DNA of 56,001 nt from an uncultured Gammaproteobacteria bacterium (GTDB taxonomy: Bacteria; Patescibacteriota; Microgenomatia; UBA1406; GWC2-37-13). A program made the translations under genes and the position numbers. The first letter of the stretch is position 1; every line of letters begins with the position of its first letter. The notes below the pieces were generated by a model. It worked only from the letters and a program-made list of their open reading frames with translations. It was not told the origin of the DNA and searched no databases. Location: NCBI GenBank assembly GCA_964576365.1, contig CAZNUT010000001.1, positions 1 through 56,001 of the forward strand, in the 5' to 3' direction. Shown here piece after piece: positions 2,651 through 55,910 of the stretch.

Positions 2651-4321
2651 TTAAGAAAGAGTTGCTTCAATACGCTTTATGAGAGCGTCTTTTTCCACAT
2701 CAGCTTTGGTGTGTGGAGTAGAGAAATGACGCAGCAGATTTTTACCCGCATTTTTCCAGAAAGTCAAAGAAACATAATTGGGTTTTTGAGACGGATCAAA
2801 GTCCAGTAGATGCCCGATGAGTTTGTATGCCATATAAAAAAGATACTTCGCGTCATGAAGCGAGCGTATCCCCACAATCTTTCGCCCAATATAGTGTGGC
2901 GTCATAAAAGCTGAATACAGATCCTGCTCAAGCTCCAGAATCTTCTCGTGTGGAAAAGGTACCTTCATTACCGGACGGCGCATGTCAAAATCATCGTAGT
3001 TTTCGGTGAGGAGCCATCCTTTTTCCTTACACTCGCGATAAAGCGGCGTGCCGGGGTAGGGGATCACGATAGTCGCCTGAATCGTCTCATAATATCCTTT
3101 TTTCATCGCGTACTTGGCGACATCGATCGTGCGCTTTGCATCTTCATATGACTCCCACGGATACCCGAGCATGATCGTGATATGTGGATCAAGTCCAGCT
3201 TTTTTCGCCATCGCGGGGTAGATGATCGCATCTTCTTCCTTGGTTCCTTTATCCAGACGGTCAAGCGTTTTCTGATTGGCCGACTCCATACCATAGAGAA
3301 TAAAACGGAATCCGGCCCGTCCCATAAGATCGTACATTTTCTGATTTGGAATAGCATTAAATCGCATATTGCACCCGTACTTCACTTTTTTGTTATACCC
3401 ACTTTCAATCAGAAGCTCGCAAAACTTTTTGAGTTTATTGCCAACAAAGAGAGTGCCGGCATCATCAAATATTTCTTTTACACCGTAGTTATCGACAACA
3501 TGTTTCACTTCGGCAAAAAGACGCTCTGGAGTAAAACTGCGGTATGAACCGATCGGATTTATGGTATGATCCCACACACAAAATGTACATTTGTTCCACC
3601 AGCAATCACGGCCGGAGTACATATAAGTACCTGGCGTGTATTTGTAATTACCATTTGCATAGGCGTAGAGTTTCCATTTGGTCAAATCGCGGTCAACAAA
3701 AGGAAGCGTATTCAAATCATGCTTCAGCGATGCAGGGCCGGAATGATAAATGACTTCGCCATTTTGCAATTTTTGACTTTTTACCTTTTCGCTTTTAATT
3801 TTTAGCTTTTTATTCGACGCTCTCCAATAGACTCCTCCTTCAAGCGGTACCCCTTTGGTGAGATGCTCGAGAATATTGAGCATCACAAAGTCATAATCTC
3901 CTCCTTTTATCGCGATGTCCACCGGACTGTTTTCAAAAATTTCATACGGAAGATAACTCACGTGGTCTCCCACCCAAACGAGTTGCAATTTGGGAAATCG
4001 TTTTTTGAGGTCTGCGATGATCTTCCAGTGGCGATGGATGACGGGCGATTTGGTCTCTACCATGAGAAAATCCGGCTGTATCTGTGCAAGTTCTTCACAC
4101 CACTGCTCGTAGGTCTGCTGACTGGCGATCCCATCCATCCAGTACACATCGTATCCTTTTGATTTGAGAAGTGATGCCGCATAGGCTGGCACCATAGGAT
4201 AAATATATGTAGGGGCATTAAAAAACTGGAATTGTCTATTTTGGGAAAGAAGCGGCACACCCTTTGAGGAGGGGAGAGGTGGGTAGCCGACTACGACTCG
4301 GAGAGGTCGGACAGTGTTCAT
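2651..4321 (-). CDS. B12-binding-domain radical SAM enzyme (HpnJ-like N-terminus)
   Basis: N-terminal Rossmann-like cobalamin-binding region (VVVGYPPLPS...QNRQFQ...YPMVPAYAASLLKSKGYDV...VWVGDHVS). Cys cluster SGRDCWWNKCTFCVW at aa 240-248. Downstream rSAM core (GMESANQKTLDRLDKG). Confidence 0.85.
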   Translation of the reverse strand: MNTVRPLRVVVGYPPLPSSKGVPLLSQNRQFQFFNAPTYIYPMVPAYAASLLKSKGYDVYWMDGIASQQTYEQWCEELAQIQPDFLMVETKSPVIHRHWKIIADLKKRFPKLQLVWVGDHVSYLPYEIFENSPVDIAIKGGDYDFVMLNILEHLTKGVPLEGGVYWRASNKKLKIKSEKVKSQKLQNGEVIYHSGPASLKHDLNTLPFVDRDLTKWKLYAYANGNYKYTPGTYMYSGRDCWWNKCTFCVWDHTINPIGSYRSFTPERLFAEVKHVVDNYGVKEIFDDAGTLFVGNKLKKFCELLIESGYNKKVKYGCNMRFNAIPNQKMYDLMGRAGFRFILYGMESANQKTLDRLDKGTKEEDAIIYPAMAKKAGLDPHITIMLGYPWESYEDAKRTIDVAKYAMKKGYYETIQATIVIPYPGTPLYRECKEKGWLLTENYDDFDMRRPVMKVPFPHEKILELEQDLYSAFMTPHYIGRKIVGIRSLHDAKYLFYMAYKLIGHLLDFDPSQKPNYVSLTFWKNAGKNLLRHFSTPHTKADVEKDALIKRIEATLS

Positions 4322-4700: not shown

Positions 4701-5696
4701 ATGAAAATGACATATACCTTTCACTCCGACATACGGCATGATGCAGCGCGGATACTCGGCACCCACGCCGGAGCCATGTGCGGATTTTTCACTGCCCAAC
4801 ACTTCATCATCCTGCCATATGCATACAAAAATACCGTCTATCTTCCGGACATTGACTATAGCCAAATCAAACCCTCTCCTACCGCCTCATATCATCCAGA
4901 CGACTATAGCGAAAAACAGCTCTCATATATTACGAAACAAATACAGACCAATACAAATAACAAAAATATCGACATTCTGCTGAAAAATATTCAACTGTCT
5001 GATCAACAAATACAAAACATTTTTTTGATATTATTTCCGACTATTTTCCCTTTAATCAAACATATTCACATCATTCTCACGCCATATGGAACTACGTGCT
5101 CATTCGACTTCAAAAAAGACAAAAAAAGCTACGATATATATCTGTGGATACGCAACGATGATGCAAAAAATCTGTTCGCAAGATACATTCATGCATTTGT
5201 ATCAGTACTTGTGCTTATCGAAACGGGCATCAGCGACATTCACACTGAAGAGTGGCGACATAAAGAATATCTTATCGACTACCTTCTTCGCCATACGTCG
5301 CTCAGTGCTATACATCCTGTCTCTCAGCGCACTCTCGCTTCACTGAAGATAAATCAACTCGGAACAAGACATCAACAAACAGCTGAAATATTTCTGACAA
5401 AACTCGGACTGAATAAAAAACTTGCAATTTCAAAAAAAGACGGTCAATATTATCTGGCAGATATAAAAATCGAACATCTCACGCATAACGAAATGAAACT
5501 TATTGATACGTTGTATGAAAAGAGGGGAGAATATGTATCAAAAAATGACTTGATGGGCTTACTCTATGGCGAAGATGGTGGAAACGAATGGAGTCTCACA
5601 AAACAAATTCAGCGACTTCGTGAAAAAATTCGAAAAACAGGCATTTATCATACACCTATCATGACAAACCGCAAGAGAGGATACATGCTTAGGTAA
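4701..5696 (+). CDS. DNA-binding protein with C-terminal OmpR/PhoB-type winged helix, no receiver domain
   Basis: The C-terminal ~75 aa (LTHNEMKLIDTLYEKRGEYVSKNDLMGLLYG...SLTKQIQRLREKIRK...TNRKRGYMLR) match the Trans_reg_C pattern. The N-terminal ~250 aa are unassignable. The exact start is uncertain. Confidence 0.7.
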   Translation: MKMTYTFHSDIRHDAARILGTHAGAMCGFFTAQHFIILPYAYKNTVYLPDIDYSQIKPSPTASYHPDDYSEKQLSYITKQIQTNTNNKNIDILLKNIQLSDQQIQNIFLILFPTIFPLIKHIHIILTPYGTTCSFDFKKDKKSYDIYLWIRNDDAKNLFARYIHAFVSVLVLIETGISDIHTEEWRHKEYLIDYLLRHTSLSAIHPVSQRTLASLKINQLGTRHQQTAEIFLTKLGLNKKLAISKKDGQYYLADIKIEHLTHNEMKLIDTLYEKRGEYVSKNDLMGLLYGEDGGNEWSLTKQIQRLREKIRKTGIYHTPIMTNRKRGYMLR

Positions 5697-6057
5697 CTTC
5701 AGTAGACTCAATATCAATCTCCAATGGCAACATATCCTGAAATTTCTCAAGATGCGCCGTGGATCCTGGCAATCGACAATCATCTGGAACTGAGCTACGT
5801 GATCCATTTGTGATACGCATACTTCCTTCTAATCCATCATAATCAGGTGTATTGAGGGGATAACAAAAAGGCTGAGCGCCTCTATTCAAATAATGTGGGC
5901 ATGGATGATCGGGATTATTGCAGACCTGCTCAAGCATTTCCCGAAACAAAATCGACGCATCGGTCTGATCAAGTGGAATATCAGAAACTACAGGCTCACG
6001 TCCTGAAAACCGAACTTCAAGAGCTTCCTGCCGGTTTCTGTGAAAACCATTATTCAT
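5689..6057 (-). CDS. hypothetical protein (122 aa)
   Basis: Intact ORF. Its 3' end overlaps the convergent wHTH gene by 8 nt. No motif recognised. Confidence 0.4.
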   Translation of the reverse strand: MNNGFHRNRQEALEVRFSGREPVVSDIPLDQTDASILFREMLEQVCNNPDHPCPHYLNRGAQPFCYPLNTPDYDGLEGSMRITNGSRSSVPDDCRLPGSTAHLEKFQDMLPLEIDIESTEVT

Positions 6058-6171: not shown

Positions 6172-6325
6172 GACGGATACTCAAATTGCTTTTGGTCAAA
6201 GCTTGTTAAGCTCTTATTGAACCCATCATCCTTTGGCTGACATTCCTACGTTCCTCGCAATGACGTTTTTTTTTGCTGAGTCGCTGAGCAGCTAAAGTAC
6301 TAAACCCCTCCAACCATAAAGCTAA

Positions 6326-6349
6326 CACCCTCCGATTCGGAGGGCAGGC
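6326..6349. repeat. 24-nt GC hairpin module (caccctccgattcggagggcaggc)
   Basis: 7-bp stem ccctccg/cggaggg. Its exact reverse complement occurs at 55584-55607. Confidence 0.85.
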
Positions 6350-6356
6350 CCTACAC

Positions 6357-6830
6357 CTATTTATACCTATCTTTCACCTGAAACAGGATATAAAATCCGA
6401 TGAGAGCAGAGATGATCGCTCCACCCACCTGAAGTGATAAAAGGCTGGAAGCAATAGACAACAACTGAGCATAAAACGCATTTTTCCATCCCTTCATGGT
6501 TTTATTAAACAATCCGGGAAGAGCAATGACATTAAACACAAGCGACAAAACAGTAAGAATAAGAGGTATGAACGAAAATACATTGCGGCCACTCATCATA
6601 CCATAACCTGTTGTCACCGGCGCAAAAACAGCAGTAAGACCCAACGCTGCGATGATAACAGGAAGTGAAAGAACCATTAGGATCAGAAGCACCCAAGGAC
6701 CAAACTTCACGATAGCATCTTTGACTTCGGAAGGAAGTTGAAATGGTGCTTTTTTCACAAAATACAACTCCAGAGTTTCTTCAAGTTTTTGTAATGACAT
6801 TTCCGAAGAATGATGAGTTTGGTCTGACAT
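6357..6830 (-). CDS. small integral membrane protein (157 aa, ~4 TM)
   Basis: Soluble N-terminus (LEETLELYFVKKAPFQLPSEVKDAIVKFGPW) followed by four hydrophobic helices. Confidence 0.6.
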   Translation of the reverse strand: MSDQTHHSSEMSLQKLEETLELYFVKKAPFQLPSEVKDAIVKFGPWVLLILMVLSLPVIIAALGLTAVFAPVTTGYGMMSGRNVFSFIPLILTVLSLVFNVIALPGLFNKTMKGWKNAFYAQLLSIASSLLSLQVGGAIISALIGFYILFQVKDRYK

Positions 6831-7226: not shown

Positions 7227-8267
7227 CTATCGTACTTTCTTGACTACTTCCTGCAAAACTCCGCGTAAAAAGGCAAGACCATAGACGATATGAGTAAGTG
7301 GTATGAAGAAAAAAAGACTGAGCGCCACGACAGGATGATACGTTCTCCGAAGACACAGTACAAACTCATAACATAAAAGCAATACATACACTGCAATGGG
7401 GATCATAAACGCTACAAAAAGCTGCATTGAAAAGAAAACAAACATCAATTGAAGAATCAACACGATGGTCATCACTACAAGATATATACAAAATAAGGCA
7501 GGAACTGCATACGTAAGACTATGCGAATTTTCATCTCCTTGAGCAAAAAAAGTGCCCCGGTGGTAACCATACTGATCGTATTGATGTATATGACCTGTCA
7601 ATGATGAACGCCGGTGATGATACACCTGTACCTGAGGATCGTAAAAAAGCCGTATACCTGTTTTTTTATACAAGGCATTTAAGAACTTACTATCCTCACC
7701 AGGCCAATAAGTTGTCTGAAAACCGCCAACCTTTGCAAAAACTTCTTTTCTTACAATCATATTCATTGAGGGAAAATCATCAACATACCGCTCCTTTACA
7801 GGAATAAATCTATATGCATACCCACCGCTTCCCAGTGACGAAATCAACACTGCATTGATCATCTGTTCCCACAATGTTGCCCGAGGTGGCATCATACCAG
7901 GTCCTCCTAATACATGAATAGTATTGTCACTGTTCAGTCGTTTTTTGACATTATAAAGCCAGTTTTTTTTCGGCCAAGCATCATCGTCTAAAAATATCAC
8001 GACCGAACCACGAGCATGCTTCACTCCATAATCTCTTTTTACACCAGGCTTTTGACCCTCTACTTCATGGTCAAAACGCAACCACGGAAAATCACGCTGC
8101 AAACGCTCTTCTGAAACAGTGCGCGTATCAGCAAGCACGATCACCTCAAAATCGTCATATTCTTGTGCCGCGAGTGCGGGTAGTGTCTCTTCGATAAGGT
8201 ATGATGAAATGATACGACAGGGGATGATGATAGAAAAAAAAGGTGAAGAAGTGACACCGTTAGTCAT
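7227..8267 (-). CDS. family 2 glycosyltransferase with C-terminal TM helices
   Basis: FSIIIPCR...EVIVLADT, DxD-like FLDDDAWP, and a C-terminal hydrophobic segment. Confidence 0.85.
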   Translation of the reverse strand: MTNGVTSSPFFSIIIPCRIISSYLIEETLPALAAQEYDDFEVIVLADTRTVSEERLQRDFPWLRFDHEVEGQKPGVKRDYGVKHARGSVVIFLDDDAWPKKNWLYNVKKRLNSDNTIHVLGGPGMMPPRATLWEQMINAVLISSLGSGGYAYRFIPVKERYVDDFPSMNMIVRKEVFAKVGGFQTTYWPGEDSKFLNALYKKTGIRLFYDPQVQVYHHRRSSLTGHIHQYDQYGYHRGTFFAQGDENSHSLTYAVPALFCIYLVVMTIVLILQLMFVFFSMQLFVAFMIPIAVYVLLLCYEFVLCLRRTYHPVVALSLFFFIPLTHIVYGLAFLRGVLQEVVKKVR

Positions 8268-10008: not shown

Positions 10009-11292
10009 ATGAGGCACCTTATTAAAAAAGCTGCAGATAATCCGTATATAGGCGGCGGGGTTTTTCTTTTGTTCGCAAATCTGCTCATGGGCGGTATGAA
10101 CTATCTGTTTAATATGTTGGCAAGTCGCTATCTAGGCCCGACTGGATACGGAGAAATCACCACACTATTTGCTTATCAAGCCGTACTTAACATTCCTTTT
10201 TCGGTGGCATCTCTCCTCGTGATTCAGCGTATGGGGACAACTCAAGACGACCCATATACCTTTGCCATTTCAACAGAACACACACTGTTTAGACTACTTA
10301 AAAAATACCGACTTGGCTTCGTATTGTTTTGGATTCTCATCCCGATTTCTCCATATATTTTTAATTTACCCTGGTACAGCGCATACTCTCTCATGTTTTT
10401 GCTTGGGATTACCGTAATAGCCGTGGTATACGACTCGCTTCTTATGGGACTTGAAATTTTTTTCCTCCCGGCGCTCATCGGCTTATTATCAGTAGGTATA
10501 AAACTGGGAGGTTTGTGGGGGAGTGTATTTGGCATCCCTCCGGTGATCGCAGTAATTCTCGCATATGATCTTTCGACACTATGCAAATTTGGAATGATAG
10601 TATTTCTCTTTCGAAAACGAGTACAGAATAAAAAAGATGTATCAATCTCAGACAAAAAATACTCTATACAAAAAACTTTGCTTCAAAAAGATACTCTCCT
10701 TTTAGTCGTCACCGTTGCTTCGACATCTCTTTTGAGTTCTGTAGATACAATTGTGTTGAATTGGAAGCTCAGTGCGGGCGAAATCGGACTCTATAATGTT
10801 TGGGCGATGAGCGCTCGGCTGATTTTATTTGCTGCAGGGCCCGTACTCACACTCAGCTATATTTTTTTCACAAAAAAAACACACAACCATCTGCACGATC
10901 TGATTTCTATCATATTCCTGACTCTGATCGCTATTGGGGGATCGGGCATATTTTGGATATACCGCACGTATGGAGAAACATTTATCCGTGTTTTTTATGG
11001 CTATTCATATTTTCCGCTTGTTCCATATCGAGATTGGGCTGCGCTTTTTGGTACAGGTCTAGTGATGAGTACATTTTTGCACAATTATTTTTTGACACGC
11101 ATGCATAAGGCCACCTACATCTTGCCAATTTTTACCGGTATATACATTTGCGTATTGCTTACCATCGTACACAGTATTTCAGATATGATGTTATTAAATA
11201 CGATAGCCGTTGCACTCTTGTGCGGGTGTTATTGTTGTGTAGTTCTTTTTCATGTCATATTAAAATTCAATCAATTATTGAGAAACATATGA
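10009..11292 (+). CDS. Wzx-like oligosaccharide flippase (MOP superfamily)
   Basis: Multi-TM protein with the N-terminal pattern NYLFNMLASRYLGPTGYGEITTLF typical of polysaccharide biosynthesis/flippase proteins. Confidence 0.65.
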   Translation: MRHLIKKAADNPYIGGGVFLLFANLLMGGMNYLFNMLASRYLGPTGYGEITTLFAYQAVLNIPFSVASLLVIQRMGTTQDDPYTFAISTEHTLFRLLKKYRLGFVLFWILIPISPYIFNLPWYSAYSLMFLLGITVIAVVYDSLLMGLEIFFLPALIGLLSVGIKLGGLWGSVFGIPPVIAVILAYDLSTLCKFGMIVFLFRKRVQNKKDVSISDKKYSIQKTLLQKDTLLLVVTVASTSLLSSVDTIVLNWKLSAGEIGLYNVWAMSARLILFAAGPVLTLSYIFFTKKTHNHLHDLISIIFLTLIAIGGSGIFWIYRTYGETFIRVFYGYSYFPLVPYRDWAALFGTGLVMSTFLHNYFLTRMHKATYILPIFTGIYICVLLTIVHSISDMMLLNTIAVALLCGCYCCVVLFHVILKFNQLLRNI

Positions 11293-17721: not shown

Positions 17722-17769
17722 TATCCAATACTTTTTACCTTTTCACTTTTACCTATTAACTAAAATTGT

Positions 17770-19860: not shown

Positions 19861-19976
19861 CATGTAATCGAAAGTTGATTTCCAAACACATATTTCTCAT
19901 ATTGAAATACCAATAATCATTCATTTTTAACTCTTCAATTTAATTTTTAATTTAGAACTAAAAAACGTTACAAAGT

Positions 19977-21827: not shown

Positions 21828-21995
21828 CTGAATGCTTCTCCCGCTACAGGCGGACAAACACAATGACGACTATCAACTATTGAATACCTGAAATCCCAAG
21901 TCCCTGAATCACTGAGCGGCTGAGTTGCTGAGTTGCTACTTTACAAACTTTATAAAGAGACAAACTGACTGATAAAGTATCTCTGACTCTGTCAC

Positions 21996-22010: not shown

Positions 22011-22784
22011 ATGCATATCTTTGCCCATCGTGGACTTCTTGAAGAATATCCTGAAAACTCACTCACTGCGCTTATTGAAGCAGTGAAAAGAGGGTATGCA
22101 ATCGAGACAGATTTACGTCTGACAAAAGATGGTGATTTTGTCATCATCCACGATGATAATTTTGAACGACTTGCAGAAGATGCAAGAAAAGTAGCACAAC
22201 TCACTGTACAAGAAATCGAAAACATACCATACATAAACTCGACAGAACGTTTTATTTCACTCAAGACTTTTTTAGATGCAATAAACAAACTGGATACCAA
22301 GCCACAGCTTGCACTTCATCTCAAAGCCGATAGCCAAAACAACAGAGCATATCAGAAACTTTCTGACTATTGGAAAAAATATGAGCTACATAACCACGCA
22401 TTTGTATTCGATCTGACCCGTGATGCTGCTCAAAATCTCAAGCAAGTAAATCCAGAAATCAAAATAGCTTATATCATCTCTGAAACAAAATTTGAGCACA
22501 CCATCAATCTCTGGGATGAAGTGAAAGATGACCCGCATTTTGATATTGTCTGGGCAGCTGAGTATCGTCATTTTTATTCACAGACGCTATTGGCAGAAAT
22601 GAAGTCAAAAAAAAAGACAGTATATTGTATGTCGCCGGACGTACACACTGCACTCGGTCATCCACTTGCATATCACGGCTACGAAGAGACATGGAAAAAA
22701 CTTATTAATTGGCACATCGACGGCATCTGCACAGACAAACCAGAGAAGCTCAAAAATTTAGAATTTCAATTACTGGGTCATTAG
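22011..22784 (+). CDS. glycerophosphodiester phosphodiesterase (GDPD) family protein
   Basis: FAHRGLLEEYPENSLTAL...IETDLRLTKDGDFVIIHDDN, the canonical GDPD catalytic motifs. Confidence 0.85.
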   Translation: MHIFAHRGLLEEYPENSLTALIEAVKRGYAIETDLRLTKDGDFVIIHDDNFERLAEDARKVAQLTVQEIENIPYINSTERFISLKTFLDAINKLDTKPQLALHLKADSQNNRAYQKLSDYWKKYELHNHAFVFDLTRDAAQNLKQVNPEIKIAYIISETKFEHTINLWDEVKDDPHFDIVWAAEYRHFYSQTLLAEMKSKKKTVYCMSPDVHTALGHPLAYHGYEETWKKLINWHIDGICTDKPEKLKNLEFQLLGH

Positions 22785-22953
22785 AAGTTTAGTTTTTTAG
22801 TCATTTAGTAGTTTAGCTAGTAGTAAATCTATTTCGCTCATTGTCTGCCGACAAGCAAACGCAATGACGATATATCAACTAACGCTCTCATCTACTAATA
22901 TACTAACCGACTAGTTTATAAACTTTATAACTTTAAAAACTTTATACACCAAA

Positions 22954-23685
22954 GTGAAAATTATTATTCCCATGGCCGGAAGAGGATCGCGCTTTGCAGG
23001 TAAAAAGATACCAAAGCCGTTTTTACCTGTTGCGGACAAACCTATGATCGCCTGGACTCTCATGAGCATCAAAAAAGCATTTCCTGATCTTGATCCTTCA
23101 GACCTGATTTTTATAGTACTTGAAGAACATGAGCACAATTTTGGCATCACAAAAAAAATAAAACACCTCGCCGGCGATTCCACTCATATTATTACGATTC
23201 CAGATGTAACTGAAGGACCTGTATGTACAGTGCTCGTTGCGATGCATCTTCTGGAGCCATATGAAGATTTTTTTACGGTAGACTGTGATCAATATTTTCT
23301 TGCACCCGACCTCACTGAAAAAATCTCAAACGCACGGGCGGAAAAACTAGCTGGACTCATACCCGTATGGCAAAGCAACAATCCAGCATACTCCTACATT
23401 CGCACTAACCAGAACGGAATAGTGATTGAAACCGCAGAAAAAAAAGTGATATCAAACAATGCTGCAATAGGGATTTATTACTTTGGTTCACGCACAGTGT
23501 ATGAAAAGGCAGCACAGGAAATGATCTCAAAGCGAATCATGACAAAAAATGAATTTTATATGTGTCCGCTTTACAATATGGTTATCAAAAATGGTGGAAA
23601 AGTACGCATAACAAATGTAAGCGACTGGATGACCATGGGAACACCTCCAGAACTCGCTCTTTTTGAGAAAAAAATCAATAGCTAA
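22954..23685 (+). CDS. sugar/polyol-phosphate nucleotidyltransferase (GT-A-like NTP-transferase fold)
   Basis: GTG start. MKIIIPMAGRGSRFAGKKIPKPFLPVADKPMI carries an intact GxGxR signature. Confidence 0.7.
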   Translation: MKIIIPMAGRGSRFAGKKIPKPFLPVADKPMIAWTLMSIKKAFPDLDPSDLIFIVLEEHEHNFGITKKIKHLAGDSTHIITIPDVTEGPVCTVLVAMHLLEPYEDFFTVDCDQYFLAPDLTEKISNARAEKLAGLIPVWQSNNPAYSYIRTNQNGIVIETAEKKVISNNAAIGIYYFGSRTVYEKAAQEMISKRIMTKNEFYMCPLYNMVIKNGGKVRITNVSDWMTMGTPPELALFEKKINS

Positions 23686-23692
23686 TCAACTT

Positions 23693-23741
23693 CTGTCTTC
23701 TGTTTACTGTAATCTGATTACTGTCGTCTGTTTACTGTATA
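23693..23741 (+). repeat. tandem degenerate heptamer array (CTGTNNN x7)
   Basis: ctgtctt ctgttta ctgtaat ctgatta ctgtcgt ctgttta ctgtata, in exact 7-nt phase. The last unit overlaps the TATAAT box. Confidence 0.85.
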
Positions 23742-23743
23742 AT
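23734..23743 (+). promoter_or_regulatory. -10-like box ACTGTATAAT, 8 nt upstream of the GT2 ATG (23752)
   Basis: Perfect TATAAT at 23738-23743. No SD sequence lies between the box and the ATG. Confidence 0.5.
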
Positions 23744-23751
23744 GACACCAA

Positions 23752-24546
23752 ATGATCCAAAAGGCATCTTCTCATTTTCTCAGCCTCATCATACCTTCAT
23801 ACCGTCAGGAAAAAACAATCATTCACAACCTCCTTCATATTAAAAAAGTGCTTGATACGATACGCTACGACTATGAAATGATCGTGGTAGTAGATGGCAC
23901 GGTAGATAATACGTTCCAACTTATCAAAAAAGCAAAAATACCCAAACTCACCTGCCTGGCATACAAACATAATCAGGGCAAAAGTTATGCGATCCGTCTT
24001 GGAATGAGCGAAGCAAAAGGGGACTATGTGATGTTTTTGGATTCAGGTATGGAGATCGACCCCAATGGCATCTCGATGTTGCTTGAACACATGGAATGGT
24101 ACGAAGCTGACATCATCGTCGGCTCCAAACGTCATCCTGCTTCAAAAGTTCATTATTCATTTTTACGTAGAATTTTGAGTTATGGATATTATTATTTTGT
24201 GAGATTTACATTTGGTGTCAACGTGCGAGATACTCAGGCGGGAATTAAAATTTTCAAGAAAAAAGTACTCGAAAAAATTCTGCCACGGCTGGTCGAAAAA
24301 AAATTTGCTGGTGATCTTGAGATGCTTGTTGTCGCTCGTCATTTGGGATATCACCGTATTTATGAAGCTCCAATACGTCTCGACTATGGTCTGAGCACCC
24401 TATCTTCTGCTGCTACCTGGCAGGCTATCTGGGGAATTTTTAAAGACACACTGGCAATTTTTTACCGTCTCCATATCATTCGTTATTACCATAAACCGAG
24501 AACACAAATACGTTTTGATCATGACAATATTATGAGAAGCGGTTAA
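23752..24546 (+). CDS. GT2 polyprenyl-phosphate hexosyltransferase-like enzyme (DPM1/GtrB/ArnC type)
   Basis: LSLIIPSYRQEKTI...MIVVVDGTVDNT...FLDSGMEIDP...RDTQAGIKIFKKKVL...FAGDLEML. Confidence 0.8.
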   Translation: MIQKASSHFLSLIIPSYRQEKTIIHNLLHIKKVLDTIRYDYEMIVVVDGTVDNTFQLIKKAKIPKLTCLAYKHNQGKSYAIRLGMSEAKGDYVMFLDSGMEIDPNGISMLLEHMEWYEADIIVGSKRHPASKVHYSFLRRILSYGYYYFVRFTFGVNVRDTQAGIKIFKKKVLEKILPRLVEKKFAGDLEMLVVARHLGYHRIYEAPIRLDYGLSTLSSAATWQAIWGIFKDTLAIFYRLHIIRYYHKPRTQIRFDHDNIMRSG

Positions 24547-24773
24547 ATATCATCTCTCTGTAGGTAGGAGCGGGATTTCGACTTATTAACATATTAACTT
24601 TTCTTAAAAGGTAAAAGCGAAAAGGTAATATATTTTTTACAACTAAGAAATAAGAATTAAGAAATAAGAATCATCTTCTTTCTTCTTCCTTAATTCTTCA
24701 TGATCATTATACATTGGACTTGGCACTCAGAAAGTAAGTCAACATCGCAAATAGTTATAAACTAATAAAATTA

Positions 24774-24815
24774 TCACCTACAACCTAACACTAAAACCTT
24801 AAACCTGACACCTGC
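24774..24815 (+). repeat. tandem degenerate heptamer array (NAACCTN x6)
   Basis: tcaccta caaccta acactaa aacctta aacctga cacctgc. Confidence 0.8.
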
Positions 24816-24839
24816 TTTACAAGCTTTATAAACTAACAT

Positions 24840-28408: not shown

Positions 28409-28537
28409 AGGTATGCGGACTAATTTCTCATGTCAAATATGTAATATCCAGTTATAAATTTCTTCTGTAACAATTGCCAACATCTTGTACTAATAACCAA
28501 TGATGAATTATAAATAAATTCTCAATTCTTAAAAAAG

Positions 28538-31641: not shown

Positions 31642-32811
31642 ATGCGTATTCTTTGGTTAACATGGAAAGATACATCTCATCCAGAAGCCGGAGGGGCAGA
31701 AACTCTCAATGAAGTACTTGCCCGTGAAATGGTAGCCGACGGACATGAGGTAATTTTTCTTGTGGGAGGGTTTGCGGGCTGCGTCAAAACAGATGAACGC
31801 GATGGGTATCGTATCATCCGTACCGGCAACCGATACACAGTTTATCTTACTACTGCTTTTTATTATTTGAACAATCTTGCCAGCTGGCCGGATCTGATCA
31901 TCGAAGAAATAAATACGGTGCCTTTTATGACTCAATGGTATGCCAAACAAAAACGTATTCTTCTCATATATCAGCTCTGTAGAGAAATCTGGTTTTATCA
32001 ACTCTGGTTTCCACTAAACCTTATCGGATATATTCTGGAACCCATCTATCTGTGGCTGTTAAGAAAAAATACGGTTCTGACTGAATCTGAAAGTACCAGA
32101 AATGATCTTGCACGCTTTGGCTTTGATAAAAAAAATACTACTGTCTTTCCCGTCGCCATAAATCAAACAATACAAACACCAACGTCATTGCGAGGACTAA
32201 CCGACTTGGCAAGGACGAAGCAATCTGTTATTTCTCCTGAATTCTTACAATCCCGCAATCCAGAATCCTCGCCGCACAACCCGACTCTCCTTTCTTTCGG
32301 CTCCATCCGACCCATGAAACGCACACTTGACCAGATCAAAGCATTTGAAATCGCGCATGAATCAATACCGGATTTAAAGCTCATTGTGGCGGGATCTGCA
32401 AAATCATCGTATGGACAGAAAGTGCTTCGATATATGCAACAAAGTAAATTTGCCACTGATATTACCTATGCAGGGGTTGTGAATGAAGACAAAAAAATTG
32501 AGCTCATGCGCCAAGCTCATCTTATCATGGTCACATCGGTGAAAGAAGGCTGGGGCCTCATCGTGACTGAGGCCGGCCTGCAAGGTACACCGGCTGTAGT
32601 CTACGATGTTGATGGTTTACGGGACACAGTACAAAATGGAAAGACAGGAATGGTGACAAAATCAAACACACCTACATCTCTTGCACATACAATAATTGAC
32701 CTATTAAAATCAGACGCATATTCTGAAATGCGCAATGAGGCAAAACACTACAACACCCGCTTCACAGCAAAAAACAGCTATGCTATACTGTCGAAATTAT
32801 TAGTGAAATAA
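31642..32811 (+). CDS. GT4-type (GT-B fold) glycosyltransferase
   Basis: MRILWLTWKDTSHPEAGGAE...EGWGLIVTEAGLQGTPAVVYDVDGLRD. Confidence 0.85.
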   Translation: MRILWLTWKDTSHPEAGGAETLNEVLAREMVADGHEVIFLVGGFAGCVKTDERDGYRIIRTGNRYTVYLTTAFYYLNNLASWPDLIIEEINTVPFMTQWYAKQKRILLIYQLCREIWFYQLWFPLNLIGYILEPIYLWLLRKNTVLTESESTRNDLARFGFDKKNTTVFPVAINQTIQTPTSLRGLTDLARTKQSVISPEFLQSRNPESSPHNPTLLSFGSIRPMKRTLDQIKAFEIAHESIPDLKLIVAGSAKSSYGQKVLRYMQQSKFATDITYAGVVNEDKKIELMRQAHLIMVTSVKEGWGLIVTEAGLQGTPAVVYDVDGLRDTVQNGKTGMVTKSNTPTSLAHTIIDLLKSDAYSEMRNEAKHYNTRFTAKNSYAILSKLLVK

Positions 32812-35742: not shown

Positions 35743-37233
35743 TTAAGATATCTTCACCAGTTTCACGTCTGCGCTTGCACACACCACATCTTTTTCCTTG
35801 AGCCCGAGTTCTTTCAGCGTCACAAAGGATTCTTTTATGAGCACATGGGTAAGCTCATACTTCTTTGCCACCTCCTGTACACTCATCCGCAAGATAGGGA
35901 AGACCTCGGTAACTTTCAGAAGGCCGGGATTGTCCGCATTCACAAACACCTGTGCTTTAGTGTGGTACACCGTCATCGTCGTATTCTGGTGAGGAATACA
36001 CAAAATCCGCAAAGTACTTTTTTGTTTATTGATATACTCAAACACCGTGAGCATATCTCCTGTCACGCTCCGATTTCTGTCACGAATGATGCCTTTTATC
36101 TGAATCCCGATGATAACCCCAACACACAATAACACAGCAACTCCAACCAAAACCAATACAAAAAAACCATACAATCCCGCAAGCTCAAACACCACATATG
36201 CTGCTATGATACTCGACGGCACCGGCGCCATCTCCAGATACCGCTGACCCTCACCGATGGGCATAAGTCTACGGATTTTCAAGACAATCACTCCAAGAAC
36301 ATATAAAAATATGATCCAGGCAGCAAATTGAAAAAGTATTGCCGGAGGACGAAACAGGTTGTAATAATTACCAGCTACCAATATAAATGCACTCAGACTC
36401 CACGGAAACAGCCCGAAAATCGCAACAGGAGAAAAAAGAGAGAGCAATTGATAAATCTTATTTACAAAATCGGTTTTGGTATCTTTTTTGATAATGCCTC
36501 GCACCTGATGAGCAAATCGATACTCAAGATTTACACACCAGAAATAAATATTGGCGATATGGCCTTTGAGTACTCGCAGATAATATCCCTTTGTCACAAT
36601 AATTGCCAAAACAAAACTTATCAGAAATATCTGTATAAAAAGAGGAGTATTTAAGTAAAACGTAAAAAAAATCGAGATAAATAAAAACGCCTGCATTGCA
36701 AATCGATGAGAAAGAAAAAGGAGAACGCCAGATACCAGGCTGACAACGAGATACCACTCTTGACCTTCACCTAAAAAAAGCAGCAGTGGCAATACAGTAA
36801 GAGTAAATAACGTGTACCCGAATGAGCGGGGAGTAAGATAGCTATTTTCCACCGCGATCATAGGAGTTGCCATATACATCACCTGTGCCAAAACAGCAAT
36901 CATCGGATTTTCGGTGATATGAAATGCAACAAAATAAACCAGTATCACCTGCAATGAATCAAAAAACGGAGCTATATAGCCTTGAATTTTCAGCAATGTT
37001 TTTTTTGGAATAAAAGAAAAGAGCCACGGAGTCACCGGTGGATAATCAAAATATCCGTCTATGATAAATTGACCTCCCAGTGGACGATCTGGAATCCGGT
37101 GATGATTTTTGCGGATATGGTCAACCTCGATGAGTCTCGTCCATACATCAACACCAAAAAAGGGATTAAATAGTCGAGGATACGACTGCAGAACAAAATT
37201 CAGCACTGGAACGAAAAAAAATAAGTTGTTCAT
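35743..37233 (-). CDS. polytopic membrane protein (GT-C-like or polymerase-like) with C-terminal soluble domain
   Basis: At least 10 hydrophobic helices. Acidic first-loop motif FFGVDVWTRLIEVDH. ~110-aa soluble C-terminus. The ATG at 37233 is preferred over the TTG at 37245. Confidence 0.55.
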   Translation of the reverse strand: MNNLFFFVPVLNFVLQSYPRLFNPFFGVDVWTRLIEVDHIRKNHHRIPDRPLGGQFIIDGYFDYPPVTPWLFSFIPKKTLLKIQGYIAPFFDSLQVILVYFVAFHITENPMIAVLAQVMYMATPMIAVENSYLTPRSFGYTLFTLTVLPLLLFLGEGQEWYLVVSLVSGVLLFLSHRFAMQAFLFISIFFTFYLNTPLFIQIFLISFVLAIIVTKGYYLRVLKGHIANIYFWCVNLEYRFAHQVRGIIKKDTKTDFVNKIYQLLSLFSPVAIFGLFPWSLSAFILVAGNYYNLFRPPAILFQFAAWIIFLYVLGVIVLKIRRLMPIGEGQRYLEMAPVPSSIIAAYVVFELAGLYGFFVLVLVGVAVLLCVGVIIGIQIKGIIRDRNRSVTGDMLTVFEYINKQKSTLRILCIPHQNTTMTVYHTKAQVFVNADNPGLLKVTEVFPILRMSVQEVAKKYELTHVLIKESFVTLKELGLKEKDVVCASADVKLVKIS

Positions 37234-37311
37234 CAAGTTCGTCAAGTTATAAAATTCGTAAAGTTGTTGTTTAATCTATGGCTAATTTCCAAGCAACGAT
37301 TTCTAATTTCT

Positions 37312-37425
37312 GTGCGAAATAGGTGGCACGAATAGAGGGTTCCCGACAGCGCGCAGAATTTTTCCAGCCTGCCGCTGGTTCGAGCACTGACGGGATGACA
37401 ATGAGTGACAGAATCTATTTCGCAC
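37312..37425 (+). repeat. GC-rich palindromic repeat, copy A
   Basis: Outer 11-bp perfect stem gtgcgaaatag/ctatttcgcac. Inner cccgacag/ctgacggg and ccagc/gctgg stems. The 27-nt core cagcgcgcagaatttttccagcctgcc is identical to copy B. Confidence 0.85.
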
Positions 37426-37454
37426 GTAATATGACTAACACTTTTACCTTTTCA

Positions 37455-37473
37455 CCTGCCTGCGGCAGGCAGG
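37455..37473. other. perfect 9-bp GC-rich palindrome cctgcctgc-g-gcaggcagg
   Basis: Lies 11 nt downstream of the minus-strand SDR stop codon. No U-tract follows on either strand. Confidence 0.5.
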
Positions 37474-37483
37474 CTCTTCACTT

Positions 37484-38443
37484 TTAACTATATTCTTTCA
37501 TAAGTTCAAGCGTTTCTTTGATCCCTTCCTCGATGCCATACCGCGATTTGAAGCCGAGTATTTTTCTCACTTTTGCGTTGTCCATAGATCCACGCCAGAC
37601 CTGAGTATTGTTGGGATTGCGGATCTCATACCGGAATGACGGATAATACTGTTTTAATATTTCGGCAAACTCTGACGCCTCACGTGATTGACCTCGTGAA
37701 ATATTAAATGTTTCATGCACAGCACCTGGACTGGTGGTACAGATAGCAAAACCAGATGCAACATCTTTGACATACGAAAAATCGAGAGCCTCATCTTTTA
37801 CAACCCACGCGCTTTTACCCGCAACTGCAGCATCGATAAGAAGCTGAGTCACTCTATTTGCGCAATCAGTAAATCCATATACTGAGGTAGGACGGATGAT
37901 GACCCACTCTTTTTTACTCAATTTTACAAAATATTCTCCTGCTGCTTTAGTGGCACCATATGCATTTACCGGAGAAAGAATAGACTCTTCAGGCTGTGGC
38001 TGTTTGGTGAAGTGTCCATATGCCATGCTGGAAGAGGTGTAAATGATCCTTCTTGCAGATGAACACTTTTCGAATACTTCCAAGACATTGAGAGTTCCTT
38101 GCATATTTATAGGCAGCATCTCATCAACATGATTTTGAGGAGGGCGAGCCATAGGAAGTCCGGCAAGATGCACTATGATTTCTGGTTTGTAATCCGCACA
38201 TGCTTTTTTAAATGAGTCAATGTCACGAATATCTCCTTTGTATTCGACAGAAGGTTTGAGCTTAAAATATTTTTTCCTGATCTTCATCATCGTTTTATAA
38301 TATTCAGGGTTGTTGATGAAGTTGAGATGAGCGTCAAATATCGCAACATCATGCCCTGACTGCATGAGCGCATCTGCAAGATATGATCCGATAAATCCTT
38401 TTCCGCCAGTGATAAGTATATTCATATGCAGATCATTATACAT
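37484..38443 (-). CDS. NAD-dependent epimerase/dehydratase (extended SDR)
   Basis: NILITGGKGFIGSYL, YGATKAAGE (YxxxK). Confidence 0.85.
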   Translation of the reverse strand: MYNDLHMNILITGGKGFIGSYLADALMQSGHDVAIFDAHLNFINNPEYYKTMMKIRKKYFKLKPSVEYKGDIRDIDSFKKACADYKPEIIVHLAGLPMARPPQNHVDEMLPINMQGTLNVLEVFEKCSSARRIIYTSSSMAYGHFTKQPQPEESILSPVNAYGATKAAGEYFVKLSKKEWVIIRPTSVYGFTDCANRVTQLLIDAAVAGKSAWVVKDEALDFSYVKDVASGFAICTTSPGAVHETFNISRGQSREASEFAEILKQYYPSFRYEIRNPNNTQVWRGSMDNAKVRKILGFKSRYGIEEGIKETLELMKEYS

Positions 38444-39211: not shown

Positions 39212-39230
39212 ATAACAAAATCTTATTTCC

Positions 39231-39279
39231 AATATCGAATATCTAATGTTTAAAGTCTAAAGTCAAATGTCTAATCACC
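39231..39279 (+). repeat. tandem degenerate heptamer array (AAWNTCN x7)
   Basis: aatatcg aatatct aatgttt aaagtct aaagtca aatgtct aatcacc, in exact 7-nt phase. It contains the ATG at 39267. Confidence 0.85.
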
Positions 39280-40412
39280 GGCAGACGTCACGAGTAGAAG
39301 GTCAGAGGCAGCGCGCAGAATTTTTCCAGCCTGCCACTGGTACGAGCACTGGCGGGACAACCACGAGTGACAGAAGCTGCCTGAGTAATAAAAAAGTCAG
39401 TATTGTGATTGTCAACTGGAATGGTTTGCATCACCTAAAAACACTACTTCCCTCACTCAGCCTACTGACATACCCCGCGCTTGAAATCATCATTGTGGAC
39501 AACGCATCAACAGATACATCGGTCCAATATATCCGAGTCAATCATCCTCTCATTCGCGTGATCGTGAACCAGCAAAACGAAGGATTTGCAAATGGAAATA
39601 ATATTGGCGTCAGACAAGCAACAGGGGAGTATGTACTTCTCCTCAACAACGACACACGAATCGTTCAACATGATCTCATAGAACATCTATTGCGCATTTT
39701 TCAACAGTCAAAAAATATAGGTATAGCTCAACCCAAAATTCTACGCATGAATTATCCAAACACTCTTGATTCTGTAGGTGCATACTATACTCGAACAGGT
39801 TTTTTGTATCATTTTGGATATCTTCAACATGATAGTGAACAATTTAATACATCAGTCCCTCTGTACACTGCAAAAGGTGCGTGTATCTTGATTAAAAAAA
39901 GTCTCATTGACCAAATTGGATTATTTGATTCAGATTACTTTGCTTATTTTGAGGAAACTGACTTTTGTCATCGGACGTGGCTTGCCGGTTACGAAGTATG
40001 GTATGAGCCAGGGGCAAAAATCGAACATCACATAGGTGGCACCTCTAATGCTATGGATAATGCATACGTACAATTTCACTCATTCAAAAACCGAATTCAC
40101 TCATATATCAAAAATCTAAGTGTTTGGGAATTGATTTTCCTCTTACCCACACATATTGCTTTGTGCATATGTGCTGCTGTGCTGTTTTTTTTAAAACAAA
40201 AACCACTGACGGGTATTGCCATACTAAAAGCAATTGTATGGAATATCATTAAGCTGCCTAAAACGTTACAAACTCGACAGCACATTCAAAACAAAATAAG
40301 AAAAAAATCAGATGCCGAATTTTTGCCAGCATTAACAAAAGCACCCCGCATAACATACTATATTGCCCTATTTGGAAACAGATTAGACCAATATAAAGAA
40401 GCTTGTCCCTGA
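39267..40412 (+). CDS. family 2 glycosyltransferase with C-terminal TM helices; N-terminal 38 codons are a repeat element
   Basis: VSIVIVNWNGLHHL...IIIVDNASTDTS...LLLNNDT. The only in-frame ATG is 39267. The canonical-looking N-terminus (x)SNKKVSIVIV begins at the CTG at 39381. Confidence 0.8.
   Translation: MSNHRQTSRVEGQRQRAEFFQPATGTSTGGTTTSDRSCLSNKKVSIVIVNWNGLHHLKTLLPSLSLLTYPALEIIIVDNASTDTSVQYIRVNHPLIRVIVNQQNEGFANGNNIGVRQATGEYVLLLNNDTRIVQHDLIEHLLRIFQQSKNIGIAQPKILRMNYPNTLDSVGAYYTRTGFLYHFGYLQHDSEQFNTSVPLYTAKGACILIKKSLIDQIGLFDSDYFAYFEETDFCHRTWLAGYEVWYEPGAKIEHHIGGTSNAMDNAYVQFHSFKNRIHSYIKNLSVWELIFLLPTHIALCICAAVLFFLKQKPLTGIAILKAIVWNIIKLPKTLQTRQHIQNKIRKKSDAEFLPALTKAPRITYYIALFGNRLDQYKEACP
39278..39381 (+). 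repeat. GC-rich palindromic repeat, copy B (inside annotated GT2 ORF)
   Basis: Termini ccggcag...ctgcc. The 27-nt core at 39309-39335 is identical to 37347-37373. The shared 3' arm is gagcactgRcggga..a..gagtgacagaa. Confidence 0.85.
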
Positions 40413-54821: not shown

Positions 54822-54836
54822 GATAAATTCCATGCA

Positions 54837-54932
54837 CCGGCAGGTGTCACGAGTGGAGGGTTCCCGACAGCGCGCAACGAACGAAGTGAAGAGAGCACTG
54901 ACGGGAGGACAACGAGTGACAGAATCTGCCGG
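54837..54932 (+). repeat. GC-rich palindromic repeat, copy C
   Basis: Perfect 7-bp termini ccggcag/ctgccgg. It shares gtcacgagt.gagggttcccgacagcgcgca and agcactgacggga.gacaa.gagtgacagaatct with copy A, but has a different central segment. Confidence 0.85.
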
Positions 54933-54947
54933 AAAGTAAAATGTAAG

Positions 54948-55910
54948 TTAATTACTCTTTCTTATCACACACACCAGGGTAAGACCAAAAGGAAGTCCAC
55001 CAATCAGTTCTTCAATGCGTAGTATTGCATCCAAGACACCTCTGACAAAACGCGAGAGGGGAGAGTTGCTTTTCCTCATAGTTTCATTTATCGGACGGCC
55101 CAGTATTTTTTCATAAAATCCGTATACAAAAAACCCGATGATATTCCAGTAACACATTTTCATCTCACCAATCCTGTCTAATCCTGCTTGCGCAATATGG
55201 TCTTTCATCAGAGCTCGGTCATACCGGCGAAAATGTCCCCATGCCTTATCACGTTTACCATAGAGAAACTGAAATGCCGGAACGGTAATAACTAACTGAC
55301 CTCCCGGCCGGACAAACGACCAGAGATTTTTTAGTGCCGTAATATCATCTTTGATATGCTCGATGACATCGCTTGCGATCACCACATCGTACGATGCATC
55401 ACCTTTCATTTCGGTGATACTCCCTTGCCGGATATCAACACCGTTTAATGCGGGATCTCGACGCATATTTTCAACAAGCTCCTGCTCAAGTTCCACACCA
55501 TGAATCTCATATCCTACGGACTTGAAAAATTTGAGAATGAGTCCGTTTCCCGCGCCAACATCTAATAAACGTAGTCGTGTAGCGCCTGCCCTCCGAATCG
55601 GAGGGTGGAGCGTGGAACCTGAAACGTTTTCTTTTTTCGACTGACTATTATTTCCTGATTGTTTCAACGCCTGAGTCTCAGAATCCCTACGTTCCTGTGC
55701 ATCGAAAGTGTGGAGTCTCTGAGCATCTGACGTACTGTCACTGTGTCGCACTAATTTATGAACAAACCTTGCCAGATTGCTGATGCGAAGATCATAAGAG
55801 CTTGAAGCGAGATGATGTTGTTGTGAGATAAGATCATAATCGTCTACTTTTTGCATAGTATGAGTATACACTGAATGATTTTCTATCGTAAGACTATCAC
55901 AACAGTACAA
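54948..55910 (-). CDS. class I SAM-dependent methyltransferase with low-complexity N-terminal insertion
   Basis: LLDVGAGNGLILKFF...YDVVIASDVIEHI. aa ~55-110 are S/Q/R-rich and are encoded by spacer-type repeat modules. Confidence 0.8.
   Translation of the reverse strand: MYCCDSLTIENHSVYTHTMQKVDDYDLISQQHHLASSSYDLRISNLARFVHKLVRHSDSTSDAQRLHTFDAQERRDSETQALKQSGNNSQSKKENVSGSTLHPPIRRAGATRLRLLDVGAGNGLILKFFKSVGYEIHGVELEQELVENMRRDPALNGVDIRQGSITEMKGDASYDVVIASDVIEHIKDDITALKNLWSFVRPGGQLVITVPAFQFLYGKRDKAWGHFRRYDRALMKDHIAQAGLDRIGEMKMCYWNIIGFFVYGFYEKILGRPINETMRKSNSPLSRFVRGVLDAILRIEELIGGLPFGLTLVCVIRKSN
55584..55607. repeat. 24-nt GC hairpin module, second copy (inside methyltransferase ORF)
   Basis: gcctgccctccgaatcggagggtg is the perfect reverse complement of 6326-6349. 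It encodes HPPIRRAG of the minus-strand ORF. Confidence 0.85.

Follow-up and report, generated by a model that had tools for sequence, protein, structure and literature searches.

Several intergenic spacers of the DNA analysed here carry tandem arrays of short, degenerate words. These arrays are probably decayed simple-sequence repeats, mostly with 7-nt and less often with 8- or 9-nt units, produced by slippage or local duplication and subsequent drift in AT-rich promoter spacers. The window, that is, the whole stretch of 56,001 nucleotides (56 kb), has a G+C content of 39% and is ~94% coding. It encodes many family-2 glycosyltransferases, sugar nucleotidyltransferases, epimerases, aminotransferases and methyltransferases, together with a B12-type radical SAM enzyme (ORF 2651-4321, minus strand) and a winged-helix DNA-binding (Trans_reg_C) protein (4701-5696), and the arrays are located upstream of glycosyltransferase and sugar-modification genes. 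The glycosyltransferase at 23752-24546, beside the array that we call A, is 78% identical to its closest homologue, and its best named relatives (67-75% identity) are Woesebacteria, Roizmanbacteria and "Patescibacteria group" bacteria. These relatives place the host in the candidate phyla radiation (CPR, Patescibacteria), among bacteria of the Microgenomates type. A tRNA scan of the window returned no tRNA genes, and a search against Rfam at the gathering score returned no family in it.

In the mechanism that we favor, slipped-strand mispairing or local unequal exchange would repeatedly duplicate a short word of AT-rich intergenic DNA, with slippage as the presumed event, and point mutations would subsequently blur the copies. 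Words taken from the promoter nearby would often be the ones duplicated, as with CTGTATA, from the extended -10 box in array A, and with the -35-like word in array C. Because such a process fixes only the period, each array carries whichever word got duplicated. The arrays may in turn affect the strength or the spacing of promoters.

Periodicity of the intergenic DNA

A simple gene model of the window gives 31 intergenic regions of at least 30 nt, or 3580 nt in total. For each region, the fraction of identical bases at every lag was compared with that in 1000 dinucleotide-preserving shuffles. At lag 7 the match is 0.3345 versus 0.2898 in the shuffles (z = 6.0), a value reached by 0 of the 1000, and harmonics follow at lags 14 and 21 (z = 2.5 and 2.4). 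A rise is also seen at lag 8 (z = 3.6, 0/1000 shuffles), with lag 16 at z = 2.5, and a weak one at lag 4 (z = 2.0, reached by 22/1000); lags 5, 6 and 9-13 remain at the background level of the 1000 shuffles. The coding DNA of the window displays the codon period only, with a lag-7 z of 0.6. An earlier note on this DNA had described spacers with a 7-nt period; in the 31 regions this period does rise above dinucleotide shuffles, and in coding sequence it does not. The period of 10-11 nt that phased A-tracts would give in curved DNA is absent (lag 10, z = -0.6; lag 11, z = 1.1).

A local scan for maximal self-matching intergenic segments (score >= 8) locates the signal, with the best score of each single array compared with 500 shuffles. 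Seven segments were found at period 7 (0.35 expected), two at period 8 (0.28 expected), one at period 9 (0.31 expected) and four at period 14 (0.24 expected); periods 6 and 10-12 gave none, and periods 4 and 5 gave one each, which is the chance level. Period-7 segments number 1.94 per kb in intergenic DNA and 0.08 per kb in coding DNA. Tandem Repeats Finder (TRF), an independent tool, found the same arrays, and the letters and coordinates that had been given for ten arrays are exact. To say that the spacers are built from such arrays is nevertheless too strong. The arrays are real, but they cover 302 of the 3580 intergenic nt (~8% of intergenic bases, versus 21 +/- 22 nt in shuffles), and just four spacers, at 17722, 23686, 24547 and 39212, consist of them for the most part.

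When the arrays are masked or these four spacers are dropped, a weaker signal persists at lags 7 and 8 (z ~3), which fits older arrays that have decayed further. The lag-7 match is also raised in spacers that had not been listed before (1105-1182, 19861-19976 and 28409-28537). Perfect copies are few: no array has more than ~2 perfect units, the lag-7 identity is 0.60-0.81, and the longest perfect tandems are a 14-mer in two copies (24644-24671) and an 8-mer in 2.4 copies (21919-21937). The 7-nt register is exact in arrays A to E and in those at 24605 and 19939.

The arrays and their recurring words

Units are given on the plus strand except where stated. Array A (23693-23743) consists of seven CTGTnnn heptads that fill the 66-nt spacer between a stop codon at 23685 and a start codon at 23752. 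Taken as a 14-nt period (23693-23738) it scores 17, which 0/500 shuffles reach, and it has a higher-order period of 14/28 nt with a lag-28 match of 0.86. Its last heptad (CTGTATA) and the AT that follows make up an extended -10 box, TGTATAAT (23736-23743), placed 8 nt upstream of the ATG. Array B (39225-39279) has ~7 heptads that drift from TATCGAA to AAAGTCT/AATGTCT (0/500 shuffles for 39225-39264), and fills its spacer from the stop codon at 39211 up to a structured element of ~110 nt. Since this element lies within the annotated N-terminus of the next ORF, array B probably abuts no real start codon, and the ATG annotated at 39267 is probably not a real start. Around arrays B and I, Rfam at E <= 1 gave no credible match.

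Array C (24774-24815) has six AACCTnA-type heptads whose similarity drops fast with lag. Its last units overlap a -35-like CTGACA (24805-24810), followed after N16 by TATAAA (24827-24832), and the whole site ends 7 nt before the ATG at 24840. In array D (24641-24699), four AAGAAAT/AAGAATT heptads, which include the perfect 14-mer in two copies, are followed by inverted TCTTCTT-type heptads (24674-24699); the direct part (24641-24670) is reached by 0/500 shuffles and has a lag-14 match of 0.93. Together with the inverted pyrimidine heptads it forms an AT-rich hairpin in the middle of a 293-nt spacer, and the fold z of -2.0 bears out the hairpin that had been noticed there.

Array E (17729-17762) fills the 48-nt spacer before the ATG at 17770 with TTTTACC/TTTTCAC heptads (lag-14 match, 0.86). 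Its reverse complement, TAAAAGG TAAAAGC GAAAAGG, is found at 24605-24628, and a third copy (3776-3807) lies inside the minus-strand radical SAM ORF, where it encodes the lysine-rich stretch KKLKIKSEKVKSQK. Shorter words of the family, TTTTACCTTTTCAC and TTCACTTTTAACTAT, occur at 37442 and 37477 (region 37439-37491; spacer 37246-37483). With at most two mismatches over 24 nt, TTTTACC TTTTCAC is matched at 17735, at 3781 and, inverted, at 24605, that is, three times versus 0 in 100 shuffles. It is the only heptad word that recurs in the window, with five sites. A spacer with a raised lag-7 match (0.42) holds TTTAATT twice (19939-19953). Among the five heptad arrays that had been phased by hand, A, B and D stand (0/500 each), as does E, marginal singly, at period 14 (P = 0.03), and C (P = 0.10) is no more than marginal. 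Higher-order repeats are not a general rule, since only a few arrays (A, D and E) show such block duplication, and an alignment of four spacers, made in search of a common architecture, was poor.

Among the octamer arrays, array G (21911-21937) has three GCTGAGnn octamers that abut a 9-mer motif at 21937 (0/500 shuffles for 21912-21937), and array F (22788-22816) has four nnnTTTAG octamers right after the stop codon at 22784 (P = 0.006). Array H (6275-6290) has two GCTGAGnn octamers and does not reach significance singly; the word that it has in common with G is matched three times versus 0.08 expected.

A family of 9-mers recurs both in the window and in other CPR lineages. Array J (22912-22947) contains ~3.7 units of the AACTTTATA family and stops 6 nt short of the GTG start at 22954. 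An earlier description had it phased on CTTTA, in 5-nt steps; with a lag-5 match of no more than 0.17 and P = 0.02 at period 9 (22915-22944), it is instead an array of 9-mers. Further copies are CTTTACAAACTTTATAA (21937-21957), upstream of the gene at 22011, and CTTTACAAGCTTTATAA (24812-24835), whose TATAAA box stands 7 nt upstream of the ATG at 24840. Array I (37234-37269, minus strand) has the units AACTTTACG AATTTTATA ACTTGACG AACTTGATG and abuts the start of the gene at 35743-37245; as a 9-mer array in its own right it is not significant, though its word family recurs. The consensus CTTTAYAAnCTTTATAA, present in I and J and at 21939 and 24815, is matched six times in the window versus 0.09 expected, and tandem units of the types AACTTTATA, AACTTGACG, AACTTGATG and AACTTTACA stand on the sense strand at four sites. 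The E family, the pair G and H, and I and J with two more sites each share words, contrary to the earlier view that the repeat unit differs in every spacer. Likewise, the arrays cannot be said never to be a dispersed element, as three word families recur in several spacers.

Related loci and competing explanations

We collected 80 CPR metagenome loci around homologues of the glycosyltransferase, with 43.8 kb of pooled intergenic DNA. The same periods are evident there, with z = 7.1 at lag 7, 6.1 at lag 8, 5.4 at lag 9 and 7.7 at lag 14; z lies close to zero at lags 4, 5, 10 and 11 and dips slightly at lag 6 (-2.6). The lag-7 signal is concentrated in certain lineages (L081, with z = 11.9, L075 and L079), whose arrays have their own words and often form inverted pairs. 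No copies of the window's heptad arrays were found in these 80 other loci, and in the nearest relatives (L021 and L022) the upstream region is not syntenic and the orthologous spacers hold no arrays. As controls we took 18 loci from unrelated phyla, obtained with a DegT aminotransferase query (26-46% identical). No lag-7 signal is present in 13 of the 18; it is strong, with harmonics, in an Opitutaceae locus (z = 11.6), in two other Verrucomicrobiota and in two Algoriphagus. The arrays in the controls include TAGTAGT x5 switching to CGCTCAC x7, CTCCCTT x5 and GTACCAA x4, and the words in Verrucomicrobiota and Algoriphagus, whether GC-rich or AT-rich, are unrelated to those of the window. Across phyla, the period is common and the words are not. 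That one signature is found in three phyla, each with unrelated words, favors the replication or repair machinery over a binding factor as its cause.

The internal structure of the arrays agrees with this. In the longer heptad arrays, the pooled match between units is 0.71, 0.60, 0.52, 0.46 and 0.40 at lags 7, 14, 21, 28 and 35, so that adjacent units are the most alike and the consensus drifts along the array. Stepwise local duplication followed by drift predicts that similarity falls with distance; a fixed binding consensus does not. The conservation of single columns within heptads cannot discriminate between the two, because duplication of already mutated units concentrates differences just as selection does. 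Relative to the downstream gene, the arrays have no A/T or G/C strand asymmetry, and they occur with equal frequency beside the stop codon upstream and the start codon downstream. Turnover of whole spacers is seen between L044 and the 89%-identical L047, where a heptad-bearing spacer of 127 nt in the former corresponds to 4 nt in the latter. One whole unit has also been gained or lost in each of two 9-mer arrays between the closely related contigs L087 and L089, which agrees with the slippage reading. Strain variants of the window, sought by exact-protein look-ups, were limited to identical contigs of the same run (SRR8893623), and one look-up was empty. Of the two readings that the earlier note had offered, slippage or duplication followed by drift is thus the favored one: only the period is shared, similarity decays along the array, strand bias is absent and the arrays are not conserved in relatives.

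We read the arrays as relics of slippage rather than as active repeats, because they lack the near-perfect tracts of the published heptanucleotide class and of phase-variation loci. Several points count against the slippage reading. Between related CPR strains at 97% identity only 9-mer arrays differ by a unit, and the 7-mer arrays are the same. With at most two perfect units per array, present-day slippage should be rare; neutral filler might be expected to be deleted from a 94%-coding genome; and the preference for 7 nt is not accounted for by the slippage evidence here. In addition, the recurrence of word families, one of which is kept next to start codons across CPR, points to selection on sequence for those particular arrays.

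The strongest competitor, possible though clearly the less likely account, is that selection keeps the arrays because they work in front of glycosylation genes as promoters or as binding sites of a regulator, with the repeated words serving as several overlapping -10-like, -35-like or operator sites for a sigma factor or a transcription factor. It is clearest for the three recurring families. Array A ends in the extended -10 box TGTATAAT, array C overlaps CTGACA-N16-TATAAA 7 nt before an ATG, and the E-family heptads have five sites. The 9-mer family, matched so far above expectation, contains TTGACG/TTGATG and TTTATA/TATAAA words and is found again in six or more other CPR lineages (L034, L059, L075, the L087 group, L090/L092 and L099), where its copies mostly end 0-11 nt before a start codon on the sense strand; the window copy at 24815 has a near-identical counterpart in L099. 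Upstream of CPR genes, AACTT and ACTTT occur in excess and with a strand bias. There are precedents for such an arrangement: ToxR of Vibrio cholerae binds TTTTGAT heptad repeats upstream of ctxAB, and iterons are direct repeats too. Those systems are likewise tandem short direct repeats in promoters, and the window itself has a gene for a winged-helix (Trans_reg_C) protein at 4701-5696. However, ToxR heptads and iterons have one conserved word and a cognate protein, and the window arrays have a drifting consensus and mostly private words.

Further observations weigh against binding arrays. Most heptad words are private, both in the window and in comparison with the 80 CPR loci, unit similarity decays with distance so that no fixed consensus exists, and neither a strand bias nor a preferred end of the spacer is seen. 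A 7-nt period does not align sites on one face of the DNA helix. In the 9-mer arrays the TTGAC-like and TATAA-like words are 12, 14, 21 or 23 nt apart, not the usual 17 +/- 1 nt, and a scan of the window for consensus promoters and terminators gave no more sites than shuffles. The proposal of phased protein binding, the other reading in the earlier note, does best for the three recurring families, above all the 9-mers. A sequence-specific function is plausible for those families only. The 9-mer family looks to be under selection and is probably a promoter part or an operator.

Alternatively, the arrays could be transcribed 5' leaders that aid translation by recruiting ribosomes or an RNA-binding protein to genes without Shine-Dalgarno sites, as has been proposed for the TAACTGA repeats of Beggiatoaceae. 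Just 3 of the 55 genes in the window have a Shine-Dalgarno-like motif, several arrays end ~10 nt or less from a start codon, and the array spacers are almost unstructured as RNA. We consider this improbable. In 287 CPR upstream regions, strict -10-like hexamers peak 6 nt before the start (36 cases versus a background of ~5 per position). The TGTATAAT octamer occurs in the window 10 times versus 3.9 expected and stands 5-8 nt before three ATGs (5 nt at 22011 and 2214, 8 nt at array A). Boxes this near the ATG imply leaderless mRNAs, and the DNA upstream of the boxes would not be transcribed together with the gene. The arrays have no strand asymmetry and lie beside the upstream stop as often as beside the downstream start. 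Their weak RNA structure is no weaker than in shuffles, so that, with the hairpin of array D as the exception, folding speaks neither for nor against selection on structure. The -10 geometry is the one expected for leaderless mRNAs, and genes of this host may well be leaderless. In that case, sequence upstream of the -10 box belongs to the promoter and not to the mRNA. Given that Shine-Dalgarno sites are almost lacking and that many promoters are placed for transcription to start at the ATG, the short spacers would be promoter DNA.

It is a little less probable still that surface-glycan genes are switched by the arrays as active phase-variation (contingency) repeats, in the manner of (ATCTTTC)n upstream of hmw1A. 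Heptanucleotide repeats in promoters or leaders are a known phase-variation device (PMC12721329), the window arrays do lie upstream of glycosyltransferase and sugar-modification genes, and 9-mer arrays can be one unit apart in related CPR strains, as between L087 and L089 (97.5% identical), where each of two 9-mer arrays (L087 positions 3793 and 5338) has a one-unit indel of 9 nt. Nevertheless, no window array exceeds ~2 perfect units, versus at least 11 repeats in natural hmw tracts (PMC12721329), and 7-mer arrays are unchanged between related CPR contigs that are 97-98% identical. Finally, the possibility that the periodicity is an eye-picked artefact of chance or composition in AT-rich, low-complexity DNA, to which the individually non-significant H, I and C and the wrong period first given for J would lend themselves, is refuted by the lag test (lag 7, z = 6.0, plus the harmonics at lags 14 and 21; 0/1000 dinucleotide shuffles) and the local scan (seven period-7 arrays versus 0.35 expected, with no excess of local arrays at periods 4-6 and 10-12), and TRF reports the same arrays.

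Relation to known heptanucleotide repeats

The earlier note knew of no described class that matches these arrays; such a class has in fact been reported. The survey of simple sequence repeats in prokaryotes by Mrazek, Guo and Shah (2007, PNAS 104:8472), as it is cited in PMC4679880 and PMC4692102, covers a class with units of 5-11 nt, in which heptanucleotides are the most abundant type of long repeat in most prokaryote genomes and are intergenic, as expected for a unit that is not a multiple of three. According to the same accounts, polymerase slippage was proposed as the cause, and 7 nt as possibly the length of DNA held at the active site of the polymerase, which would favor slippage (PMC4679880, PMC4692102). 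As far as that description goes, the window arrays share with the class a head-to-tail tandem arrangement, a preference for 7 nt, an intergenic location, a multitude of words and a scattered occurrence across phyla. They differ in that the published tracts are long and near-perfect, whereas those of the window have 3-7 units that are 60-87% self-similar and, being short and degenerate, would be missed by a scan for perfect repeats. Their host, moreover, belongs to CPR, a group that the 2007 survey, by these accounts of it, did not cover.

More specific families are also known. Three families of tandem heptanucleotides have been described in Calothrix PCC 7601, GGGGAYT in Nostoc PCC 7120 and GGGAATC in Xanthomonas (PMC4692102). 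These are intergenic heptamers too, sometimes in inverted pairs capable of forming hairpins, and their copy number and sequence vary between close relatives (PMC4692102). However, they comprise few words at many sites, often in long perfect tracts, and some are G-rich and form quadruplexes (PMC4692102), whereas nearly each window array has an AT-rich word of its own. The TAACTGA direct repeats of marine Beggiatoaceae, some Cyanobacteria and Bacteroidetes resemble our arrays in standing directly upstream of start codons, in 2-6 copies, at genes without Shine-Dalgarno sites (PMC4679880). TAACTGA is a single word in a fixed orientation at 169 sites, which suggests a binding factor (PMC4679880); in the window, by contrast, the words differ, a strand bias is absent and the leaderless architecture speaks against a role in the mRNA. 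A dispersed heptamer family with one word was accordingly considered and rejected, as words differ between arrays and only TTTTACC/TTTTCAC recurs. The phase-variable (ATCTTTC)n upstream of hmw1A and hmw2A in Haemophilus influenzae is another 7-nt unit in front of surface-related genes, and its hairpin with a purine-rich partner recalls array D, but those tracts are transcribed, perfect and variable in copy number, with 11 units or more (PMC12721329), and the window arrays are short and degenerate. Our search for literature on such repeats, or on leaderless translation, in CPR/Patescibacteria found none.

Taken together, the arrays are best read as a member of the heptanucleotide class already reported and not as a new kind of element; what is new is the CPR host and the unusual degeneracy. 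The excess of heptanucleotides has been known since 2007 and has been studied almost only as long perfect tracts. The window represents the decayed end of that process, in which whole short spacers, promoter boxes included, consist of blurred heptads. More tentatively, and on balance not expected to hold, 7-9 nt tandem duplication could be the main source of new intergenic DNA and promoters in the streamlined, leaderless genomes of CPR that lack Shine-Dalgarno sites. The 9-mer arrays (AACTTTATA / AACTTGAYG, 0-11 nt before starts in at least seven Microgenomates-like lineages) would then be an undescribed promoter or regulator module, with the number of units tuning expression. For the annotation of this genome three leads emerge, namely the lack of ribosome-binding sites with possibly leaderless transcripts, the conserved 9-mer motif upstream of genes, and the structured element of ~110 nt. 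These results also suggest that a search restricted to perfect repeats gives too low a figure for the intergenic DNA made by repeats of this kind.

Gain, loss and block duplication of spacer arrays

Comparison of two CPR contigs that are 97.5% identical, L087 and L089, revealed a difference of a single 9-nt unit at each of two sites (L087 3793 and 5338) where 9-mers of the AACTTGAYG/AACTTTATA family are arrayed in tandem; these arrays reach 11 or more units. Another difference was found between L044 and its 89%-identical relative L047. The 127-nt spacer at L044 7612-7738, which contains TTTTCAA heptads and a hairpin, is replaced in L047 by 4 nt (7771-7774). Furthermore, one module of about 100 nt, made up of an AATTACA-type heptad array and an inverted ATTTGTG-type partner, is present twice in the L081 contig, at 2313-2410 and 5922-6021. 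Thus, some heptad modules are duplicated or mobile as a block.

Strong heptad arrays were also detected in control loci of unrelated phyla, where they fill the spacers of polysaccharide clusters in Opitutaceae, other Verrucomicrobiota and two Algoriphagus species, each array with its own words. They are located at 529-612, 848-886, 3572-3660, 5966-6035 and 12496-12919 of L011, at 11143-11175 and 18413-18443 of L007, and at L013 7123-7155, L009 2415-2606 and L012 140-170. Abrupt changes of word within a single array are frequent in this set, as where five TAGTAGT units give way to seven CGCTCAC units. The arrays of L011 include CCCCAGA units, which resemble a cyanobacterial heptamer word, CCCCAGT.

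Heptads are found within coding sequence as well. In the radical SAM gene of the window, a heptad array (3755-3829, minus strand) encodes the lysine-rich linker KKLKIKSEKVKSQK, positioned between the B12-binding domain and the radical SAM domain. Separately, the interval 4701-5696 encodes a 331-aa protein with an uncharacterised N-terminal part of 250 aa and a C-terminal winged-helix domain of the OmpR/PhoB type. This protein is a candidate regulator of the gene cluster.

A structured element and other recurring words

An element of about 110 nt occurs three times on the + strand of the window (37310-37430, 39272-39392 and 54831-54940), the copies being 83-91% identical to each other. Its G+C content is raised, at 52-57%, and on folding it forms a long stem in which changes on both sides preserve 7 pairs. 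No match to it was found in Rfam. A covariance model recovered it in two further CPR contigs (L048 9245-9365 and L044 11741-11856; E-values of 1e-11 and 1e-7), where a radical SAM gene and a gene for a putative secreted protein follow it at a distance of 16-34 nt. Possible identities for it are a leader RNA and a small, mobile hairpin element.

Two other words recur in the window. A pair of 31-nt segments, 97% complementary and with the hairpin CCCTCCGATTCGGAGGG, is found at 6326-6356, immediately past the 3' end of gene 6357-6830, and at 55577-55607, within the doubtful ORF 54948-55910. The word CGCAATGACG recurs in three spacers (6252-6275, 21860-21880 and 22860-22880), in two cases followed by TATCAACTA, and has one inverted copy within a gene (32173-32196, reverse complement). 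Its recurrence upstream of octamer arrays suggests that the three spacers have modules in common.

Gene starts

The first 41 or so codons of ORF 39267-40412 (39267-39390) consist of the ~110-nt structured element, and its Pfam glycosyltransferase domain does not start until residue 45. Translation probably does not begin at the annotated ATG, which falls within a heptad array (39225-39279). Just ahead of the conserved KKVSIVIVNWNG, no canonical start codon is present.

More generally, Shine-Dalgarno motifs are nearly absent from the window (3 of its 55 genes), -10-like hexamers peak 6 nt ahead of start codons in the pooled CPR loci L023-L102, and TGTATAAT is placed 5-8 nt ahead of three ATGs in the window. 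Taken together, these sequence features suggest that leaderless mRNAs are widespread in these CPR bacteria.
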